The notes under the pieces were generated by a model. The model saw only the letters and a list, made by a program, of their open reading frames with translations, was not told the DNA's origin and searched no databases. The translations under genes were made by a program, and so were the position numbers. From the IMG/VR virus record IMGVR_UViG_3300007513_001104: DNA of 64,000 bases. One strand, given 5' to 3'. Below, in pieces: positions 2,693 to 50,792 of this stretch (its first letter is position 1; every line of letters starts with the position of its first letter). The stretch comes from a virus.

Positions 2693-3039
2693 TAGTTTAC
2701 TCCCCAATTTCTCCAAGTGGCCTGGTCTCTTGTTTTAGGCGACCATTCAATTGGTTGGAAATCTTTTAAGTGGCTGGCTCTTAATCTAACATGTAGCATA
2801 TCATTAACACAAAACTCATCATCTCTTTGTTGCCATTGCAATAAAAACTCTTGCATCTTCGCAGGTGCACGTGATGAATATTCTGCTATGATTTCTTTTG
2901 TTAATGTCTGCGTACATTCTTTAACAACCTTTGAACTACCAAAGTATTTCTCAAATAGTTTATCTGTCTTGCAGGAATATCCAATATAATATCTTCCGTC
3001 TGGAAAATAAGTACAATATACTCTATGTTTTTTAGCCAT
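2692..3039 (-). CDS. GIY-YIG-like nuclease domain protein
   Basis: RVYCTYFPDGRYYIGYS...KYFGSS. Probable start MAKKH at 3039. Confidence 0.6.
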   Translation of the reverse strand: MAKKHRVYCTYFPDGRYYIGYSCKTDKLFEKYFGSSKVVKECTQTLTKEIIAEYSSRAPAKMQEFLLQWQQRDDEFCVNDMLHVRLRASHLKDFQPIEWSPKTRDQATWRNWGVN

Positions 3040-13840: not shown

Positions 13841-15385
13841 CTAGATAGCCAATTTCTTTTGTTTATACGTTTCTATAAAGTTCTTTGCATATTCACTTGG
13901 TATTGGTAACTCGCTTTGTAGTTTGGACATATCTTCCCATTTATATTGTGGATCTATTAACCAATTATGATAGCCAAATGGCAATGGTGGCTGATCAGTT
14001 CCCGTTGTGTACCACTCATGTTCCAAAAAGTTTATTACTTCATACAAATCTAGAGTATCTGATTTCCAGTTCATAAAAGATACTTCTTCCTGGAATGTGC
14101 TTTCTTCTGTTTTATATACAGTTTTATTAGGATTTTCTTCTCTTTTCTTAAGAGCTTCATACATTTTGCCATATCTTTTTTGAGGACCATCTTTCCATGT
14201 TCTATTGCCTATAATAGTTTCTGTAAATCCGTATTTTGCTGGGTCTTTTGAAAATCTGCTTTGTTCATCGTATGGTCTTGGGTCACTAGGTATCCACAAA
14301 GGATTGATTAAAGCAGTTTGGCCTTGCCAATTATTTTCTAACCATCTTTTTGTTTCCCTTAGAGTATCTAAAGTTTCATATGGTAAACCAGCAATTAAAT
14401 TTATATGTCCCTGAAAAAATCCTTGCTGCTTAGCCCAATGTTTGTAATTTAAAAGACCATCTTGTAGTTTAACAGTTTCCATGCCCTTTCCTACCGACTT
14501 TCCTGAAGGTCTATGGAAAGATTCAATGCCATAGAATTGAGAATTTAATCCTAAATCATGTATCATTTGCCAGTCATCTGGTTTAGAAACTAATAAATCT
14601 CCTCGAATATAACCTGCCATATTAGGTTTAAAGGGTAGTTTTTTAATTTGATTAGCATATCTGTATAGCTTTTCTGTGTAATCGTTTACTGTTTCGTCTG
14701 CTATTGAGTAGTTAGTTACACCCCATTTTTCATAATTTGTAAGTAATTCATTATATAAATTGTCCTCTGCTCTGCTGTGATCTTCTTTAATTCCTCTATG
14801 GGTTAGTGTACAGAAGTGGCAATTAAATATACAACCACGGCCAAACTCTACTGTAAGGACCTCCTGTGGCTGGATATGATCCCTATCTTCGTAATAAGTA
14901 GATAAGTCTTTTAATTGTGCTGCAGGATAATCATGTGTTGCATCTATACGACGGTAAGGATGTCCATTAAGCCACATGTGATCTGAATACTTTGGATTGC
15001 CTTTAAGAATAGCAGTTATGGCCAATTCTCCGTAACCGTGTACCACATAATCAATTGGTAATCCTTCTACATTATATAATGATTGAGAGCCTGCTACGAT
15101 TAAAACGTCAGGATATTCTTTTTTAAACCAGGGTACAAATTTATATAGATGTTTAAATCTAATTGAGAATGTAGCGCTTAGGCCTAAGAATTTTGTTTTG
15201 TTTGTTACTCGTTGGCGGGAGAACTCTTTTAACTCATCTAGAGTCCAAGAGTTTACAAAGTCTAGAACTTCTATATCCCAACCTTCTCGTCTTAAGTGTG
15301 TTGCTATTTTGTGAGCTCCTGGAGCTCTTTTGATTGAATCATAATAATAGTCAACCACACCACCCATAATAATACCGTGGTTCAT
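13841..15385 (-). CDS. cobalamin-binding-type radical SAM enzyme
   Basis: N-terminal B12-binding-like region (GLSATF...IVAGS...HGYGE); RGCIFNCHFC; YGIESF; LIAGLPYET. Confidence 0.8.
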   Translation of the reverse strand: MNHGIIMGGVVDYYYDSIKRAPGAHKIATHLRREGWDIEVLDFVNSWTLDELKEFSRQRVTNKTKFLGLSATFSIRFKHLYKFVPWFKKEYPDVLIVAGSQSLYNVEGLPIDYVVHGYGELAITAILKGNPKYSDHMWLNGHPYRRIDATHDYPAAQLKDLSTYYEDRDHIQPQEVLTVEFGRGCIFNCHFCTLTHRGIKEDHSRAEDNLYNELLTNYEKWGVTNYSIADETVNDYTEKLYRYANQIKKLPFKPNMAGYIRGDLLVSKPDDWQMIHDLGLNSQFYGIESFHRPSGKSVGKGMETVKLQDGLLNYKHWAKQQGFFQGHINLIAGLPYETLDTLRETKRWLENNWQGQTALINPLWIPSDPRPYDEQSRFSKDPAKYGFTETIIGNRTWKDGPQKRYGKMYEALKKREENPNKTVYKTEESTFQEEVSFMNWKSDTLDLYEVINFLEHEWYTTGTDQPPLPFGYHNWLIDPQYKWEDMSKLQSELPIPSEYAKNFIETYKQKKLAI

Positions 15386-19988: not shown

Positions 19989-20220
19989 TTATTTTCCTCT
20001 CTAACTCGTCTATCTTGTTTGCGAGTAAGGGATAGTCCCTTCTCCATTTAACTTCTTTTTTGGCCACTTCTATATCATATTTTTCAGACAAATAATTCAT
20101 AAATTTATCTACCTTTAACTGAAACCATTTGCCTGCTTTAGTATTTAAAAACCATTTAGCAAATGCTGTACCAAAGGTAGCAGTTGCCATTGATATTAAT
20201 AATCTATAAACTATTAACAT
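19981..20220 (-). CDS. small membrane-associated hypothetical protein
   Basis: N-terminal hydrophobic helix; overlaps neighbours. Confidence 0.55.
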   Translation of the reverse strand: MLIVYRLLISMATATFGTAFAKWFLNTKAGKWFQLKVDKFMNYLSEKYDIEVAKKEVKWRRDYPLLANKIDELERKINE

Positions 20221-20840
20221 TTAAATTCTTCCGCAAGTAGGAATCTTTTAAAGTCTTTATATCCTGTTTCGCCTTCGTTTAACTTCATGCCTTCTCTTGT
20301 TGCTTTATATAATTTTTTAGCATGATCGTCAGCATGGTTAGTATGTAACCCTGCTTTAAACGATTTGTAATCACCATTTCTAGCGTGGTCTCTCATTTTT
20401 GTACCACTAATTCCTGCTACACCTGTAGCATCAGGGTCTCTTTGGCCTGCTGAAAGTATATGTATTTTCTTATAATTGTATTCTTTTCCATTATACTTTT
20501 TAGCTAATGATTTAAAGTCTTTTACTCTATCACTACCAACTACCATTGTTGCGTGTGTATGTCCTTCTTGATTAAACTTCTTTAATTGGGCTAAGAAATG
20601 TGGGTGATCTTTTGTTGAATGCTCAAAATTAACATCTGGATGCACATGTCTTAAAAATTCTTTTTTATGTTCGTGGTGTAAAGGGTCTGCCTTATGATGT
20701 TGTTTATGACTCACTATTACAGCATGATTTGCCCCTATCTTATCTGCATGTGACTTAACTTTATCTACGACTTTGCTATGGCCAGCAGTAGGTGGGTTCA
20801 TACGGCCGTATGAAAATACAATATGTTTGTCTTCTGCCAT
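20214..20840 (-). CDS. HIGH-superfamily nucleotidyltransferase (phage cytidyltransferase-like), His-rich
   Basis: YGRMNPPTAGH, MVVGSDRV, SAGQRDPD, ISGTKMR. 22 His in 208 aa by hand count. Confidence 0.8.
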   Translation of the reverse strand: MAEDKHIVFSYGRMNPPTAGHSKVVDKVKSHADKIGANHAVIVSHKQHHKADPLHHEHKKEFLRHVHPDVNFEHSTKDHPHFLAQLKKFNQEGHTHATMVVGSDRVKDFKSLAKKYNGKEYNYKKIHILSAGQRDPDATGVAGISGTKMRDHARNGDYKSFKAGLHTNHADDHAKKLYKATREGMKLNEGETGYKDFKRFLLAEEFKC

Positions 20841-20841
20841 A

Positions 20842-20892
20842 TTAATTGCTACAAGTACATGGATCGCATTTACAGCTTTCGCATTTGCACAT
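20842..20892 (-). CDS. 16-aa metallothionein-like peptide MCKCESCKCDPCTCSN (not in ORF track)
   Basis: ATG at 20892, TAA at 20844-20842, AGGAGG RBS 5 nt upstream. Three CxC motifs. Stop lies 1 nt before the next ATG. Confidence 0.75.
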   Translation of the reverse strand: MCKCESCKCDPCTCSN

Positions 20893-20906
20893 GATTGCCT
20901 CCTGTT

Positions 20907-21107
20907 TTATTCTTCATCTAATAACTCTTGTATTTCTTCTTCTAGACGATACCATTCCATACCTTTGGTTACTTCTTGCTGTTTTCTCAATTCTTCTATT
21001 CTTTGTTTCTTTCTTCGATACTCTTTTCCTTCTTCAAGCATCTTGTCAACTACTTTCTGCAACTTTTTAAAGTCTTCGTCCCCCATGGTTAACATATCCC
21101 AATACAT
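20907..21107 (-). CDS. small charged coiled-coil hypothetical protein
   Basis: ORF fits the gap; AAGGA RBS. Confidence 0.55.
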   Translation of the reverse strand: MYWDMLTMGDEDFKKLQKVVDKMLEEGKEYRRKKQRIEELRKQQEVTKGMEWYRLEEEIQELLDEE

Positions 21108-21111
21108 ATCC

Positions 21112-22263
21112 TTATCCTTTATTAAAATTAGCAGCGCTAAATTCTTTTCTGTCTACAAATTTAGAAGGTCTGCCATTTCTTATAGCTACAAATCCTTCTG
21201 GTTTACTCTCTGCTCCTGCTATCTCATGCCCCCATTGTGACTTCTGAGATAGAGTGTTGGTTATAATATTCTTGGCCGATTGCAAATGTTTGTGCATATT
21301 CATAGGGCCTTCAAAGTGCTCTTTATTCTTATTTATGTGATCTATTGTATTATCTTTGGTTGTTTGATGCCTGGCCTTAGCTGCGTCAGTTTTTACACCA
21401 TCTATTTTCTTTTGATGTGTAGCTGAATGATGTTCTACAAAACCTTCGTGGGAATGTTCTGTCCCTGTTCTTACCGTGTGGTTTATATACGTTTTTAAAG
21501 CAGTAGAGTGCTTACCTACTGTGTCGTGATGTTCGTCTGGTGTGTTTTTAAAGTGTGCTACTGCTTGTTGTAGGTGATGATCTACTTGTTTCCTGTCCTC
21601 TAAGGAGTATCTATTTTGAGATGTATCGTGTGTAGTATCCATCAAATGAACGTCCTTATGCCCCTTAAAATGGCTCATATCAGGGTTATGTACTGCCTTT
21701 AATGACTTAATGTCCTTGCCTTCGTACTGTGTATGTACTGCTAATCCTAGCTTAGCTTTCGATGCTTTTTTACCGTGTTCTGAATCTGCCGGGGCGTGAT
21801 ATGTAATTGTATTAGGTGTAAATTCTACTCTATTTCCGTTCTGCTTTACCCCTGTGTGCATAACATCTGCTTGATATATGCCTTGTGGTTTAATTTTATG
21901 TGCGTGATCTAATGATGCTTTAAGTTTTTCTACTAAACCTGGCGCATGGCCGTGATTCTTTTCTATATCTTCAGGTGTGTAGTTTATCTTAGGAGTTTTA
22001 TTGAATGCTGATTTAGATGCTACAAAGAACTTCTTTGTTTCAGGATGCTCGCCGAATACAATAGCAGGACTGCCATCGTATTTCATTGTAACAGCTGTGT
22101 CCTTACCACCCTTTCCAGATAGCTTTTTGTGCATATCATTAACGGTGTGAAAGGCATGTCCAAACCCTTTTTTGCCTGCATGTATGACGTGATCTTCGAC
22201 ATGCTCTAGGTGTTTGAGTTTGTCCTCATCTTGTTGTTCAGTTAAAAATTCAGTAAACCTCAT
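21112..22263 (-). CDS. ligase-fold nucleotidyltransferase-like protein (DUF6267-like), His-rich, with capsid-targeting-like N-terminus
   Basis: KHLEHVED, MKYDGSP (KxDG), EGFV, KFVDRKEFS..NF; N-terminus MRFTEFLTE; about 39 His in 383 aa. Confidence 0.7.
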   Translation of the reverse strand: MRFTEFLTEQQDEDKLKHLEHVEDHVIHAGKKGFGHAFHTVNDMHKKLSGKGGKDTAVTMKYDGSPAIVFGEHPETKKFFVASKSAFNKTPKINYTPEDIEKNHGHAPGLVEKLKASLDHAHKIKPQGIYQADVMHTGVKQNGNRVEFTPNTITYHAPADSEHGKKASKAKLGLAVHTQYEGKDIKSLKAVHNPDMSHFKGHKDVHLMDTTHDTSQNRYSLEDRKQVDHHLQQAVAHFKNTPDEHHDTVGKHSTALKTYINHTVRTGTEHSHEGFVEHHSATHQKKIDGVKTDAAKARHQTTKDNTIDHINKNKEHFEGPMNMHKHLQSAKNIITNTLSQKSQWGHEIAGAESKPEGFVAIRNGRPSKFVDRKEFSAANFNKG

Positions 22264-22268
22264 ACCAG

Positions 22269-22276
22269 TATTTATA
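22269..22276 (-). promoter_or_regulatory. T4 late promoter TATAAATA
   Basis: Exact consensus 5 nt before the ATG at 22263, implying a near-leaderless late mRNA. Confidence 0.8.
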
Positions 22277-26253: not shown

Positions 26254-26282
26254 ATTATGCACTCTGGCGAACCAAAAGTCAA
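26254..26282 (-). promoter_or_regulatory. sigma70-type promoter with internal dyad
   Basis: TTGACT-tttggttcgccagagtg-CATAAT. Confidence 0.75.
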
Positions 26283-26875
26283 CCTTTTTCTGGTGTTATA
26301 TCCTCTTGATTTGATTGTTTTTCTGCATAATGTAAGTAGGTAGTTAGTACATATTTGTCTGAATTTGTTGGATTTTTGCACTGATAAGGGTATTCCCACG
26401 TGGGTGGAAACACCACAGCTCTCCCTTTTCTGGGTTCAACTCCAACAGCTTGTCTTGGAAATTCTGTGTTGCCGTCATTATCTGACAGATACACTCTAAA
26501 TGCTACGGCTCTAATAGAATCTGAATTATCCATCACATCTATATGGCCTGCATAACTGTCCTCTGAATTTGCTCGGAACCTGGTAATAAGAATCTCTTCC
26601 ATTCCCTGGTGAGCTATTAAATTTGGTATCTCTAGTTCTTCTAGATATTTGCCATAGAGTTTGGCAATTTGTTCAACTATTCCATTATGAAAGTCTTCTT
26701 CAAAATGGTATCTTGTGTATTCATATCCGGTTGCTGTTAACCCTTGTTCATCTTCAACAGACTTATGAAGGTCTAAATTTAATTTAAATATGTTGATAAG
26801 GTCTTCACAGTTAGAGTCTGAAAAGACACCATCAAATATTCTAAGGGCTCCTAATCTTGGGTTTGTTTTTTCCAT
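26279..26875 (-). CDS. 2OG-Fe(II) oxygenase family protein
   Basis: HID...YLSD..G.TEF...P.KG..VVFP; KYVLTT. The distal His appears to be replaced (YPY). Confidence 0.7.
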   Translation of the reverse strand: MEKTNPRLGALRIFDGVFSDSNCEDLINIFKLNLDLHKSVEDEQGLTATGYEYTRYHFEEDFHNGIVEQIAKLYGKYLEELEIPNLIAHQGMEEILITRFRANSEDSYAGHIDVMDNSDSIRAVAFRVYLSDNDGNTEFPRQAVGVEPRKGRAVVFPPTWEYPYQCKNPTNSDKYVLTTYLHYAEKQSNQEDITPEKG

Positions 26876-41351: not shown

Positions 41352-41972
41352 CTAGCCAAATTTCTCCTTTACAGAAGTCGAATCTGAAAAGTTCAACTCT
41401 ATATTAGTACCGACACTATCATACTCGTCAGACATTACTGCTACTTCTGTAGCTGCCTCTTGTACATGTTGCATTACATTTTCAGGTGTACTTATGTCGT
41501 AAGGATCGTCTTCAGCATTGTCTTGGAAACCTTCTTCAACAAATGACTTAACTATTGTTCCGTCAGTTACTATTGCTGCATATCTCCAGGACCTCATTCC
41601 AAATCCTAAATTATCTTTTCGGACATCCATGCCCATCTTAATTGTAAACTCACCACTACCATCAGGTATCAGTTTAACATTTACAATTTCCTGTTTCTCT
41701 TTCCACTCTTCCATAACGAATGTATCATTAACACTAACACAATAGATATCATCTATGCCTAGTTCTCTAAACTCAGAATATAGCTCTTCAAATCCAGGAA
41801 GTTGTTGTCCTGAACATGTAGGAGTAAATGCTCCTGGCAAACCAAAAACTATTACTGTCTTATCTTTAAACAGATCATCTGTTGTTAATGTAGTCCATTT
41901 AAAACCCTCTGTTGCGTGGGTTATTCTTCTATGGAATGTTGCTTGTGGAATTTCTTCTGGCAATCTACTCAT
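41352..41972 (-). CDS. peroxiredoxin (Prx5-type)
   Basis: GLPGAFTPTCS, SVND.FVM, GMRSWRY. Confidence 0.92.
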   Translation of the reverse strand: MSRLPEEIPQATFHRRITHATEGFKWTTLTTDDLFKDKTVIVFGLPGAFTPTCSGQQLPGFEELYSEFRELGIDDIYCVSVNDTFVMEEWKEKQEIVNVKLIPDGSGEFTIKMGMDVRKDNLGFGMRSWRYAAIVTDGTIVKSFVEEGFQDNAEDDPYDISTPENVMQHVQEAATEVAVMSDEYDSVGTNIELNFSDSTSVKEKFG

Positions 41973-42883: not shown

Positions 42884-43842
42884 TAGTTAAGAGTACCAAA
42901 ACCATCTAATTCAAACTCAATTTTATATGCTAAGTCTTGATGGCATTTAACTCCTGGATGCAACAAATCTCTTCCTACATCATCTAAGCCCAACCCAGGT
43001 GGTGGCTCTTTTTCTTGCATAGGTTTTAATATTGTTTCACTCATTACTTGTAGAGCCTCTTCAGGATCTGCTGGTAATGTAACACCAACTCCAGGTATGT
43101 GTTGGTGTATTAAAGTTAGGTCGTCTGCATAATTATATGTAGATTCTTTTGACATGTCTGCTGGGTCGTCAGACGTTCCGTTAATCCATAGTATAGGTAT
43201 GTTCCAATTCTCTCCTAGTCTAATTATGGTTTTCATCATTATCATATGTTGCCATTTTGCTACGCCCAAAGATTGATATAAAAAGAGTAGTTCTTTCTCT
43301 TTACTGTCTGGTTTGAGTGCCGCTGGTATATAATCTATATTCTTTACACTAACCGGAACATCTGGAATGCCTACAGAAATGCCTGTAGAATTTTGTGAAC
43401 CAATTAATACCATATGTTTAGGCGGTGTTTTCCAATACTTACTTAGTTGTAAAAGGTTAAAGGGTAAGTTCTCTAGTCTACCACCATAAGTAGATGCATT
43501 ATAGAAAGGAATGCCCATTCTTTCTTCTAAAATTTTGTGATATAAATCTCTGTTATGTAGTCCAGGACCTACACCAATGCATTCTGTAGAACATAAGACC
43601 CAATCACCGTCCAAATCTGCCACTTCATGATCGGATCTGAAACCCAGAGAGTCAAATTTATAAGTAATGGGATCACTCTCGTTGTCATAATATTTCCACG
43701 TAGGTCCATACTTTTCTCTCGCTTTATTAAACCAGTCCCATGATTCATGTAACAACCACTTATATTCTTCTTTGGGATCTGCTTGGTAAGATATTAAACC
43801 GTGTTTTCCTAGGGTTATTTTTTGTAGTGGAACATTATTCAT
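42880..43842 (-). CDS. SGNH-hydrolase-like protein
   Basis: YKFDSLGFRSD, YNAS..GG, RDLLHPG..CH; same family pattern as 15397..16266. Confidence 0.5.
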   Translation of the reverse strand: MNNVPLQKITLGKHGLISYQADPKEEYKWLLHESWDWFNKAREKYGPTWKYYDNESDPITYKFDSLGFRSDHEVADLDGDWVLCSTECIGVGPGLHNRDLYHKILEERMGIPFYNASTYGGRLENLPFNLLQLSKYWKTPPKHMVLIGSQNSTGISVGIPDVPVSVKNIDYIPAALKPDSKEKELLFLYQSLGVAKWQHMIMMKTIIRLGENWNIPILWINGTSDDPADMSKESTYNYADDLTLIHQHIPGVGVTLPADPEEALQVMSETILKPMQEKEPPPGLGLDDVGRDLLHPGVKCHQDLAYKIEFELDGFGTLNY

Positions 43843-44599
43843 TCTTGAATTCAGGGGGCCTCTTTTCTATAAATGAGGCTATGCCTTCTTCTATATCTTT
43901 TGACTCTAGACACATGTCCTTAGCCCAAAGAGCAAAGTCAATGGCTTCATCCATATTAGAGTTTACTGTATGCCATACTGCTCCCTTAGTCCCCCTCACA
44001 GCTATTGGTCCACACTCTGTGGCTATACGATGTGCAAAGGCTAAAGCTCTCTCATCAACGTCTCCATGGCATACCATATTACATAGTCCTACTCTCTCCA
44101 ACCACCAAACATCATGCTCGTCACCTGGCATCATAAAAGAAATAGCTCTATTAGAACCTATTCTTTGTGTCAATTTAACTTGCATAGTAACAGCATTGAA
44201 ACCTAATTTAGTTTCAGGACACATGAATCTGCTAGTCTCATCTGCGAAAACAAAATCACTAGCTAACATCAATCCAAAACCCTCTCCTATACACCAGCCT
44301 TTAATTGCTGATATAATTGGTTTAGGTGTTACCATATCGTTATCTGATAATAGAAAACCCCAACCCTCTTTTAGTCCTTGATGTATTGTCTTAACATCAA
44401 AACCTGCTGTAAAATGGTTGGGATTGCCGGATCGTATGACAAGAACCCTAGCTTCATCGTCATCTCTGAACTGAACTAGGGCGTCATTGTATCCTGCGTA
44501 AAAGGGTTTGTCTAAGATATTTAAAGGACCGACACCGTTTATTGTTAAAACGGCGACGTGGTCGTTTAAATCGTAAGTGATTCTCTCACCAAATTCCAT
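43835..44599 (-). CDS. enoyl-CoA hydratase/isomerase (crotonase) family protein
   Basis: HFTAGFD oxyanion loop, KPIISAIKGWCIG.G, F.CPETKLG, EGIASFIEKRPP.F. Confidence 0.9.
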   Translation of the reverse strand: MEFGERITYDLNDHVAVLTINGVGPLNILDKPFYAGYNDALVQFRDDDEARVLVIRSGNPNHFTAGFDVKTIHQGLKEGWGFLLSDNDMVTPKPIISAIKGWCIGEGFGLMLASDFVFADETSRFMCPETKLGFNAVTMQVKLTQRIGSNRAISFMMPGDEHDVWWLERVGLCNMVCHGDVDERALAFAHRIATECGPIAVRGTKGAVWHTVNSNMDEAIDFALWAKDMCLESKDIEEGIASFIEKRPPEFKNE

Positions 44600-49226: not shown

Positions 49227-50792
49227 TTAGATGCTTAAGTCAAAAGAAATGAGGAATTCTCGTCCGCCAGCAGCATATTCTGGCAGAATTTCGAATTTTT
49301 TATTGAAAATGTCCCTGATCTGTAACCCTATCCTGTACCTGGGTCCTAGGTAGTAACCTAGAGTTAGGTCTAAGGTTGATACATCATCTATAGGCCGGTT
49401 GGCATAATCCAAACCCTTTTCAAACTCACCTATATAGACTATTCCATAGTCAATTTTGCCAAACGTATTTGAATAACTTAGTTTGGTCTTATACTTGGGT
49501 GATTGAAGTTTATCTGTATCTGTATATTGAACTAATATACTATAATTTTCATATGATTTATTGAACTTAAACCCTGAGGATTCATAACTGCCTGTATTGA
49601 TATATTGATAGTCAGCAAAATTAAAATCTATTCCGTCGCTAAACTCGTAATGCCAAATTGTAATGCCCTTCCATCCTACTTCTAAACCTACACCCTTTTC
49701 AGGATTTAAAAGTGAATTAGGTTTAACCATTTGGTCTCCAAACCTTTCATATAAATTAGGAAGTCTATAACTATTCCCTAATGAAAATCTAAAATCTTTT
49801 ACTTCAACACCTGTTCTTATTGTTTGAGCGTCATCTTCGTAACGATATCCTATCCCAAATTTATATGGAACGACAGATGTTCTTACTTTAGCTTCTTGTT
49901 CTTTAAACCAGTTAAAATAGACTCCTGTTCTCCAAGCCTGATATCTTGTAGGGACTGGAGATCTAAAATAGTAATCATAATCTTCTTGTTGTGCTGTTAC
50001 GCCTGTTAAGAAATTTTTATATTTGTACTTTGCGTCTGCAAATATACGAGAACTTTTAACACCCCAACCTGTATTATGTTTTGCACTATTTAAATTGTAT
50101 CCTAGGGTGAACCAATCATTCCTAATAGATATATCTGTTTTATAACCTGATTGATTACAATCATTATATTCTATCGTAGAAGGTAAGCAATCATCATAAT
50201 CGTAACTGTAATCTTGAGACACCATAACAACATCAAACCCTGCAAAATTCGATTTTGTTTTAAGTGTTGTATTATCATACCAATCTTCTTCACTATTTGT
50301 TGTCTTAACAGAGCCTATTGAACCTTTGAATCTAGATATTTGGAACCACTCATTACCCCCTGAGATCATTTGTTGTGCATCTCCTCCTTTATAAAATACA
50401 TGTTTATCAAATGTATCTTCTATAAGGATTGTTCCTGCCATTGAAGAGCTACCAAACAATGCACTATTAGGTCCTGAAATTTTTTGATACTCTTGAAACG
50501 TAGGTAAATCTATTCCAAAATCATACCACCCTGACGAAGGATCATTAACAGGTATGCCGTTTCTATATACTGTTGTGTGTTTTGTGTCTGTCCCGTGTAG
50601 TCCTGCTCCAATAAATCCACCAGGGCCTCCTGGAGCATATACTTTTGTTCCTTCTACTGCTTCTATTGCTGAATTATCGTGTGCTGGATCTGAATATCCT
50701 GTAGTAATCTTTGATCCTACTACTAACGTTTCTTCTACTTCTCCAAATGCTACTGTAGGTAGTAGCATTAACATTATAACGAACTTTCTCAT
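49227..50792 (-). CDS. TonB-dependent outer-membrane receptor (compact, BtuB-like)
   Basis: Signal peptide; EETLVVG TonB-box-like; plug motifs TTVYRNGIPVND and GPNSALFGSSSMAGTILI; YRLPNLYE..L.PE; C-terminal GREFLISFDLSI strand. Confidence 0.8.
   Translation of the reverse strand: MRKFVIMLMLLPTVAFGEVEETLVVGSKITTGYSDPAHDNSAIEAVEGTKVYAPGGPGGFIGAGLHGTDTKHTTVYRNGIPVNDPSSGWYDFGIDLPTFQEYQKISGPNSALFGSSSMAGTILIEDTFDKHVFYKGGDAQQMISGGNEWFQISRFKGSIGSVKTTNSEEDWYDNTTLKTKSNFAGFDVVMVSQDYSYDYDDCLPSTIEYNDCNQSGYKTDISIRNDWFTLGYNLNSAKHNTGWGVKSSRIFADAKYKYKNFLTGVTAQQEDYDYYFRSPVPTRYQAWRTGVYFNWFKEQEAKVRTSVVPYKFGIGYRYEDDAQTIRTGVEVKDFRFSLGNSYRLPNLYERFGDQMVKPNSLLNPEKGVGLEVGWKGITIWHYEFSDGIDFNFADYQYINTGSYESSGFKFNKSYENYSILVQYTDTDKLQSPKYKTKLSYSNTFGKIDYGIVYIGEFEKGLDYANRPIDDVSTLDLTLGYYLGPRYRIGLQIRDIFNKKFEILPEYAAGGREFLISFDLSI

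Follow-up and report, generated by a model that had tools for sequence, protein, structure and literature searches.

In the stretch of viral DNA analyzed here, i.e., 64,000 nucleotides from the IMG/VR record IMGVR_UViG_3300007513_001104 (hereafter the window), an open reading frame (ORF) of 16 sense codons is a genuine gene, which gene finders have overlooked. Its product, which contains six cysteines, is probably translated late in infection as a minimal metallothionein-like peptide that buffers Cu(I), zinc, or cadmium, possibly to the benefit of iron–sulfur (Fe-S) cluster assembly. This micro-gene belongs to a previously undescribed family of cysteine-rich peptides, 14–24 residues in length, which is found in ocean phages and in many bacterial groups, and which was missed by annotation because of its short length. 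What is new here comprises the six-cysteine minimal form, the exchange of two types of peptide (A and B) at one slot, the counted enrichment of metal genes, and the partial association with Fe-S genes. A search of the literature found neither the phrase "viral metallothionein" nor a phage-encoded metallothionein, and a search with the literal peptide motifs also found nothing.

The Micro-Gene and Its Setting

The micro-gene lies on the minus strand, where it starts with an ATG at 20892, ends with a TAA at 20844–20842, and is preceded by a Shine–Dalgarno (SD) sequence (Table 1). An original prediction had described a 51-nt ORF with AGGAGG 5 nt upstream, six cysteines among 16 residues in the arrangement CxC-xx-CxC-xx-CxC, and a stop codon 1 nt ahead of the next ATG. 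All of these are present: the ORF and the AGGAGG are on the minus strand, the cysteines occupy residues 2, 4, 7, 9, 12, and 14, and the ATG which follows the stop codon after 1 nt is that of a cytidyltransferase-like gene, at 20840. The range that had been given, 20842–20903, covers the ORF, but it also takes in the SD sequence and left the strand unstated. Cysteine makes up 37.5% of the peptide (6 of 16 residues, in three CxC pairs), and there are no aromatic residues and no histidine. In order-3 Markov simulations, 0.06 ORFs of up to 20 residues with at least six cysteines were expected per window, or 0.01 where an SD sequence was also required, and dinucleotide shuffles reproduced the pattern of the micro-gene in 0 of 100 cases. 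It is the only SD-led, cysteine-rich short ORF in the window, and also in the 89.5-kb record.

The virus record is a fragment of a T4-like phage (89.5 kb, 49% complete), and the cultured phages nearest to it share only about 35% identity in DUF6267. A T4-type late promoter consensus heads the unit in which the micro-gene lies, and is followed in order by the DUF6267 gene, a 66-residue ORF, the micro-gene, the cytidyltransferase-like gene, a 79-residue ORF, and two Rz-like spanin genes; no terminator-like site was found between this consensus and the micro-gene. The match to the late promoter consensus suggests that the micro-gene is probably expressed late, and it is presumably translated. In the window, no metal-responsive regulator accompanies the micro-gene, only the late promoter consensus. 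The cytidyltransferase-like gene has no visible SD sequence of its own, and therefore its translation is probably coupled to the stop codon of the micro-gene, as far as can be judged from the sequence.

The late promoter consensus is separated by 5 nt from the start codon of the DUF6267 gene (22263–22276), such that the transcript would be nearly leaderless. Both of the late proteins that flank the micro-gene consist of 10–11% histidine, compared with 0–7% for the other ORFs of the record. The 66-residue ORF found no tblastn match in related loci, and its place is taken in other phages by a lysine-rich ORF, by nfuA, or by nothing. Read-through from this ORF into the cytidyltransferase frame was rejected: although no stop codon interrupts the frame in the window, relatives vary in the upstream ORF and in the distance from stop to ATG, which ranges from an overlap to 6 nt. 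Also discounted, as RNA evidence of expression, was a 189-nt contig from two seawater libraries (spanning 20767–20955), because its length and depth were identical in both libraries, one of which is probably DNA.

Table 1. Positions of features in the window, and loci in which related features were found.
Feature	Position or locus	Strand	Basis or remark
Micro-gene, 16 sense codons, CxCxxCxC-DP-CxC, mini-metallothionein-like	20842..20892 (including TAA)	-	Sequence, orthologs in L476–L478, and family
Shine–Dalgarno sequence AGGAGG	20898..20903	-	5-nt spacer to ATG; SD-like element kept in orthologs
Cytidyltransferase-like gene, HxGH, 208 aa, 11% His, downstream	20214..20840	-	PF01467 E 1e-5; phrog_3041 E 5e-57
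Accessory ORF, 66 aa, upstream	20907..21107	-	phrog_28543 E 2e-4
DUF6267 gene, 383 aa, 10% His, upstream anchor of variable slot	21112..22263	-	PF19782 E 4e-96
T4-type late promoter consensus TATAAATA	22269..22276	-	Consensus match only; heads unit with micro-gene
Radical SAM enzymes	13841–15385, 37679–38992		Gene products of the window
Peroxiredoxin-like protein, enoyl-CoA hydratase, TonB-dependent receptor, 2OG-Fe(II) oxygenases	41352–41972, 43835–44599, 49227–50792, 26279–26875, 37036–37713		Gene products of the window
B-type micro-genes	L005, L007–L013, L018, L030–L034 at about 2930–3000 (L011 1543, L032 2342)
Further B-type loci	L089, L138, L337, L340, L343, L346, L352–L355
Lysine-rich ORF	L001–L004 at about 2895–2990; L476–L478		In L476–L478 just upstream of micro-gene
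Third-class micro-ORFs	L480, L483, L487, L489–L491, L497, L503, L509, L523, L526, L528, L529, L531
Repeated-motif Bacteroidales ORFs	L367, L369, L374, L389, L396, L409, L450
Two-copy acidic proteins	P0005, P0020, P0032, P0038, P0039, P0053, P0073, P0088, P0089

One Slot With Changing Contents

The micro-gene is a mobile accessory cassette, which has been gained, lost, and swapped with the B type at one slot, i.e., between the DUF6267 gene and the cytidyltransferase-like gene. Among 34 close loci from T4-like relatives, which were retrieved via the cytidyltransferase alone, the DUF6267 anchor was found in 34/34, and the slot contained a B-type peptide in 14, a lysine-rich ORF in four, and nothing in 16. 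The B-type genes between these two anchors are SD-led and encode 15–17 residues with eight cysteines (CxCCxCCxCTCC); seven of the 14 B-type loci also contain nfuA. In the B-type cores all eight cysteines are invariant, with variation between TGT and TGC, and pN/pS is 0.11. A-type orthologs of the micro-gene occupy the same slot in three metagenome contigs (L476–L478), where the last one or two residues differ. Conservation, whose absence the original prediction had named as its refuter, was thus found in these orthologs and also in 67 viral loci.

Mapped on the DUF6267 tree, the presence of the micro-gene implies about six events of gain or loss, and well-supported branches force at least four of these. 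The four same-slot A copies show no synonymous changes, compared with 28–34% third-position differences in the adjacent gene. A near-identical tract of ~100 nt (20790–20892 of the window, versus L476–L478) comprises the micro-gene and the start of the cytidyltransferase-like gene, reaching into its first 20 codons. Because the near-identity continues into the next gene, and the RNA at the micro-gene has no notable fold (z 0.9), the simplest reading is a recently shared recombination tract.

The lysine-rich ORF that is found in this slot is ~30 residues long and extreme in its lysine content, and occurs either alone or before the cysteine micro-gene. B-type peptides of 15–18 residues were seen outside this group of phages as well, in some cases next to nfuA or iscA. 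The predicted link to cytidyltransferase-like genes holds for the T4-like clade of the window only; elsewhere, the neighbors are iscU, iscA, nfuA, terminase, portal, or tail genes, which rules out an obligate link.

A Family of Small Peptides in Viruses and Protein Collections

The pattern ATG-CxCxxCxCxPCxC was found in 67 IMG/VR contigs, in ORFs of 14–24 residues that are mostly SD-led 15–16-mers (34 of the 67 have 15 residues). An SD-like site (at least 4 nt) lies upstream in 60 of these 67 loci, and in 48 of them the ORF ends within two codons of the last cysteine. Family members differ in their codons but keep the cysteines, start, SD sequence, and stop. Proline is common before the last CxC but is not required: its invariance was an artifact of search patterns that imposed it, and variants without proline, together with a class of 19 residues and eight cysteines, were found once the pattern was relaxed. 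About half of what the scans with and without proline returned was background from antisense repeats, which was filtered by start, SD sequence, and stop; a generic scan for CC-type patterns was swamped by antisense (TGY)n repeats and was discarded. Longer forms of the family (20–44 residues) occur, as do N- or C-terminal fusions.

A profile of the family retrieved 124 clusters from a protein collection, mostly of proteins with 29–60 residues, and the names looked up among these were "hypothetical protein" or none. No family was reached in Pfam or NCBIfam (best E 0.2), and nothing significant was found by PDB sequence and Foldseek searches. In the ESM Atlas, the nearest clusters are unnamed, and a Metallothio_5 cluster was found at 0.79, under the lead threshold. 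An AlphaFold2 model of a 35-residue family member, of low confidence (pLDDT 69, pTM 0.30), is coil over all of its cysteines.

A third class, in other phages, consists of SD-led micro-ORFs of 19 residues with eight cysteines (CxCxxCxCxxCxCxCCxC), which had no Fe-S neighbor in the loci checked. ORFs of Prevotella and other Bacteroidales have tails of repeated motif copies, and some of these have lipoprotein-like N-termini. Acidic, disordered-looking proteins of 175–270 residues that start with MG have two spaced copies of the motif; these are unnamed and possibly eukaryotic.

Bacterial Homologs Beside Metal Genes

A motif scan of bacterial and archaeal genomes gave at least 120 matches. A metal neighbor was defined as MerR, CsoR, ArsR, P1B-ATPase, multicopper oxidase, CDF, CusA-type, or NosL within 3 kb. 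Among the matches listed, there was such a gene for 22 of 53 small motif ORFs, compared with 5 of 67 other matches; when the loci that had donated queries were left out, the counts among the matches listed were 14/45 and 2/64 (p 6e-5, for loci that are not phylogenetically independent). CopA (a P1B-ATPase) is among the genes enriched beside the bacterial motif ORFs listed. The bacterial small-ORF matches listed, which derive from a limited set of queries, are in ~60% of cases without a metal gene, and some of the MerR or ArsR neighbors may be sensors of something other than metal. Two of the MerR neighbors have a C-terminal loop with two cysteines, which we take to be CueR-like, and two have three cysteines. 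Fusions with HMA domains were also seen, in which the motif can stand at either end of the protein (L371, P0094).

HMA copper-chaperone-like proteins with a six-cysteine tail were seen in L364, L371, L445, L475 (which has two copies), and P0094, and the genomic genes of this group adjoin P1B-ATPase genes. N-termini that resemble signal peptides were seen in the bacterial members L427:3316–3438, L464:5665–5784, L437, and L461, with CsoR, MerR, or multicopper oxidase genes adjacent, and these members are candidates for exported mini-metallothioneins.

Comparison With Known Metallothioneins

Defined by composition, metallothioneins have a low mass, more than about 20–30% cysteine in CxC or CC, and few or no aromatic residues or histidine, and the window peptide has this composition. 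Metallothioneins are further expected to bind d10 metals in metal–thiolate clusters of defined stoichiometry and spectra, to be linked genetically to metal homeostasis or induced by metal, and to have little regular secondary structure when metal-free; a genetic link of this kind was seen for many of the bacterial homologs listed. The window peptide probably works like a metallothionein, yet it lies outside every curated metallothionein family.

In plant metallothioneins of types 1 and 2 (PF01439, Metallothio_2), the C-terminal six-cysteine domain resembles the family in having three CxC pairs, the last of them within C[DN]PCxC, after which one or two residues follow. A search with the family profile found the plant metallothionein P0066 (PF01439 E 7e-16), the tail of which has the same spacing of cysteines. 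However, in plants this domain forms the end of a two-domain protein of roughly 80 residues with a long spacer, whereas the phage motif is the whole product of 14–16 residues, and the first two CxC pairs of plant metallothioneins are usually separated by three residues (CXCXXXCXC), whereas those of the micro-gene family are separated by two. The PF01439 cutoff was not reached by the family (best E 0.6, for 1 of 40 members, with a single domain only). The bacterial metallothioneins SmtA and MymT are controlled by regulators of the ArsR/CsoR/MerR types, as also stand beside the bacterial members of the family. SmtA/BmtA (PF02069) have histidine ligands and a zinc-finger fold, whereas the window peptide has neither and is about a third of their length; 40 family members gave no match to PF02069 at E up to 1, in Pfam or NCBIfam.

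The Cu-thioneins of Tetrahymena subfamily 7b (MTT2, MTT4) are built from the block CKCXXCKC, with lysine beside cysteine and without CC doublets, which mark the Cd/Zn subfamily 7a (PMC1808422). This block is matched by residues 2–9 of the window peptide, in which there are likewise no CC doublets, and the split of 7a and 7b (CC versus CxC) parallels the B and A types of the phages. Nevertheless, the Tetrahymena proteins are eukaryotic, multi-repeat, and 96–181 residues long (PMC4755600), compared with 16 for the window product, and they are metal-induced; no match of the family to the ciliate metallothioneins of Pfam was found. This likeness is likely to be convergence; because cysteine-rich patterns converge easily, a likeness to eukaryotic metallothioneins need not be homology.

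Among fungal metallothioneins, MMT1 of Magnaporthe, with 22 residues, is the smallest metallothionein cited (PMC12508003), and the Cu-metallothionein of Neurospora has 26 residues and seven cysteines. Like the phage peptide, these are tiny, single-cluster, and cysteine-rich; they differ in being eukaryotic, longer, of other cysteine spacing, and biochemically characterized, whereas the phage family starts at 14 residues. The six-cysteine boxes of a fungal Cu-thionein are assumed to bind four Cu(I) (PMC4755600). The predicted resemblance of the CxC clusters to metallothionein domains is borne out by the building blocks described, and the prediction that the peptide is smaller than the metallothioneins then considered agrees with the 22-residue minimum.

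Association With Iron–Sulfur Genes in Phages

Among the phage peptides, 23 of 45 distinct short A forms have iscU, iscA, or nfuA no more than 150 nt away, as do 6 of 19 B forms, compared with 0 of 49 background matches; for the long forms, 7 of 25 have an Fe-S gene anywhere in the locus. Most of the adjacency to iscU derives from one cassette, in which the neighboring IscU proteins are mostly 83–100% alike, and part of the signal could arise if phages that infect the same hosts share a hot spot for accessory genes. The micro-gene is usually 3′ of iscU, rather than preceding it. Of 80 phage iscU loci, 12 have a peptide within 1.5 kb (each on a contig that the motif scans had returned before) and 68 have none, which rules out an obligate link with IscU. 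The copy in the window has no Fe-S neighbor, nor was one seen elsewhere in its record, which is 49% complete. By contrast, of five related T4-like records, four encode IscU, and one relative, complete at 170 kb, has IscU together with eight radical SAM domains over the cutoff. The available text of PMC5332604 describes phage iscU and A-type carrier genes from marine phages of the same kinds, among them T4-like ones with many radical SAM genes; that text mentions no cysteine-rich micro-gene, and the micro-gene peptide is not homologous to any Fe-S scaffold.

The cassette of iscU (in some cases iscA–iscU) and micro-gene lies just before the terminase genes of podovirus-like marine phages, which have at least two different large terminases (L164:948–1370, L519:3437–4210, and about 25 similar loci).

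Could the peptide itself be a carrier or store of iron or Fe-S clusters, with its cysteines ligating Fe(II) or [2Fe-2S]/[4Fe-4S] that are handed to the phage IscU, IscA, or NfuA in iron-poor seawater? The repeated adjacency of iscU, iscA, and nfuA in both podovirus-like and T4-like phages would fit, as would a single case in which the motif is fused with a ferredoxin tail (L456), and the micro-gene is present in 7 of 7 nfuA loci of the clade versus 7 of 27 others (which are related loci and not independent). However, the bacterial homologs cluster with genes for copper or heavy-metal efflux or regulation, and iscU, iscA, or nfuA was within 3 kb of 0 of the 120 bacterial matches listed; the 68 phage iscU loci do without the peptide; and CxC spacing is typical of metallothioneins and not of Fe-S proteins. 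A carrier of this kind is therefore unlikely.

Proposed Role and Other Explanations

The reading preferred here is that of a metal-buffering, metallothionein-like peptide. The peptide would be made late in infection, and its six cysteine thiolates would fold around a small metal cluster, either of Cu(I) (Cu4S6-type) or of one to two zinc or cadmium ions, possibly as peptide dimers around the cluster, and would thereby buffer thiophilic metals in the infected cell. Copper, zinc, and cadmium block IscA and IscU (PMC7283390), and the most plausible benefit would be that Fe-S cluster assembly and the many radical SAM enzymes of the phage are shielded from mis-metallation. That the peptide binds metal is quite likely; a preference for copper comes a little short of an even call; and a role in protecting Fe-S proteins is put forward tentatively. 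The original reading as a phage metallothionein gains from the bacterial homologs beside metal regulators and pumps, from the HMA fusions, and from the metallothionein building blocks, but it does not extend to membership of a curated metallothionein family.

A broader picture, which we consider possible rather than probable, is that marine phages carry mobile metallothioneins of 14–16 residues, of which the copper type (CxC) and the zinc/cadmium type (CC) are interchangeable, and which partner viral Fe-S genes by guarding against copper or by carrying iron or clusters. If metallothioneins of 14–16 residues exist, they would be the smallest that are gene-encoded, and a natural six-cysteine peptide of this length would define the minimal self-sufficient metal–thiolate cluster; metal buffering would then be among the functions which ocean bacteria receive from phages, tied to known Fe-S genes. 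The claim of metal binding is directly testable, because the peptide is cheap to synthesize. The spread of the family over phages and many bacterial groups shows what length-limited annotation overlooks.

Perhaps the cysteines serve in redox chemistry instead, the peptide being a thiol redox buffer or a disulfide-knotted micro-peptide, possibly packaged in or on the virion with the histidine-rich late proteins, and scavenging radicals or serving as a small ligand rather than storing metal. Nearly all phage contexts are late genes (terminase, portal, tail, spanin), the phage also encodes a peroxiredoxin-like protein, and some bacterial members (L427, L464) have signal-like N-terminal segments; but the phage forms are without a signal peptide, and would therefore remain in the reducing cytoplasm, and both the enrichment of metal genes and the HMA fusions would be left unexplained, such that this role is distinctly unlikely.

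The stop codon is a few nucleotides from the next ATG in most loci, the cytidyltransferase-like gene is without its own SD sequence, and the A and B patterns can replace each other within a single slot, all of which would suit a regulatory leader ORF, in which a run of cysteine codons senses the supply of Cys-tRNA and gates the coupled downstream gene, the peptide itself being irrelevant. This is very improbable, however, given that the exact spacing of the cysteines is kept (with proline common before the last CxC), that the motif is also found as fused and repeated domains, that different phages have unrelated genes downstream and mostly have the ORF after iscU and not before it, and that there is no RNA structure.

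The modified-peptide alternative of the original prediction has been weakened to the point of being scarcely credible: a RiPP precursor of the SCIFF or ranthipeptide kind, in which a radical SAM enzyme of the phage would install the cross-links, would suit the six cysteines and the two radical SAM proteins of the window. Such precursors have a leader peptide and an adjacent radical SAM/SPASM maturase, but here a leader is absent, an ORF with a radical SAM motif was within 3 kb in none of the 67 A loci and in one of the 40 B loci (over a median span of 4.3 kb), and scans of both window enzymes reported no SPASM domain. The probability that the ORF is no gene at all, having arisen by chance or marking a conserved element of DNA or RNA, is close to negligible: the four copies without synonymous change could be read in this way, but chance would give 0.01 per window, the codons of the family vary around fixed cysteines, start, SD sequence, and stop in the absence of a fold, and the identity of the copies is better explained by recent recombination that extended into the next gene.
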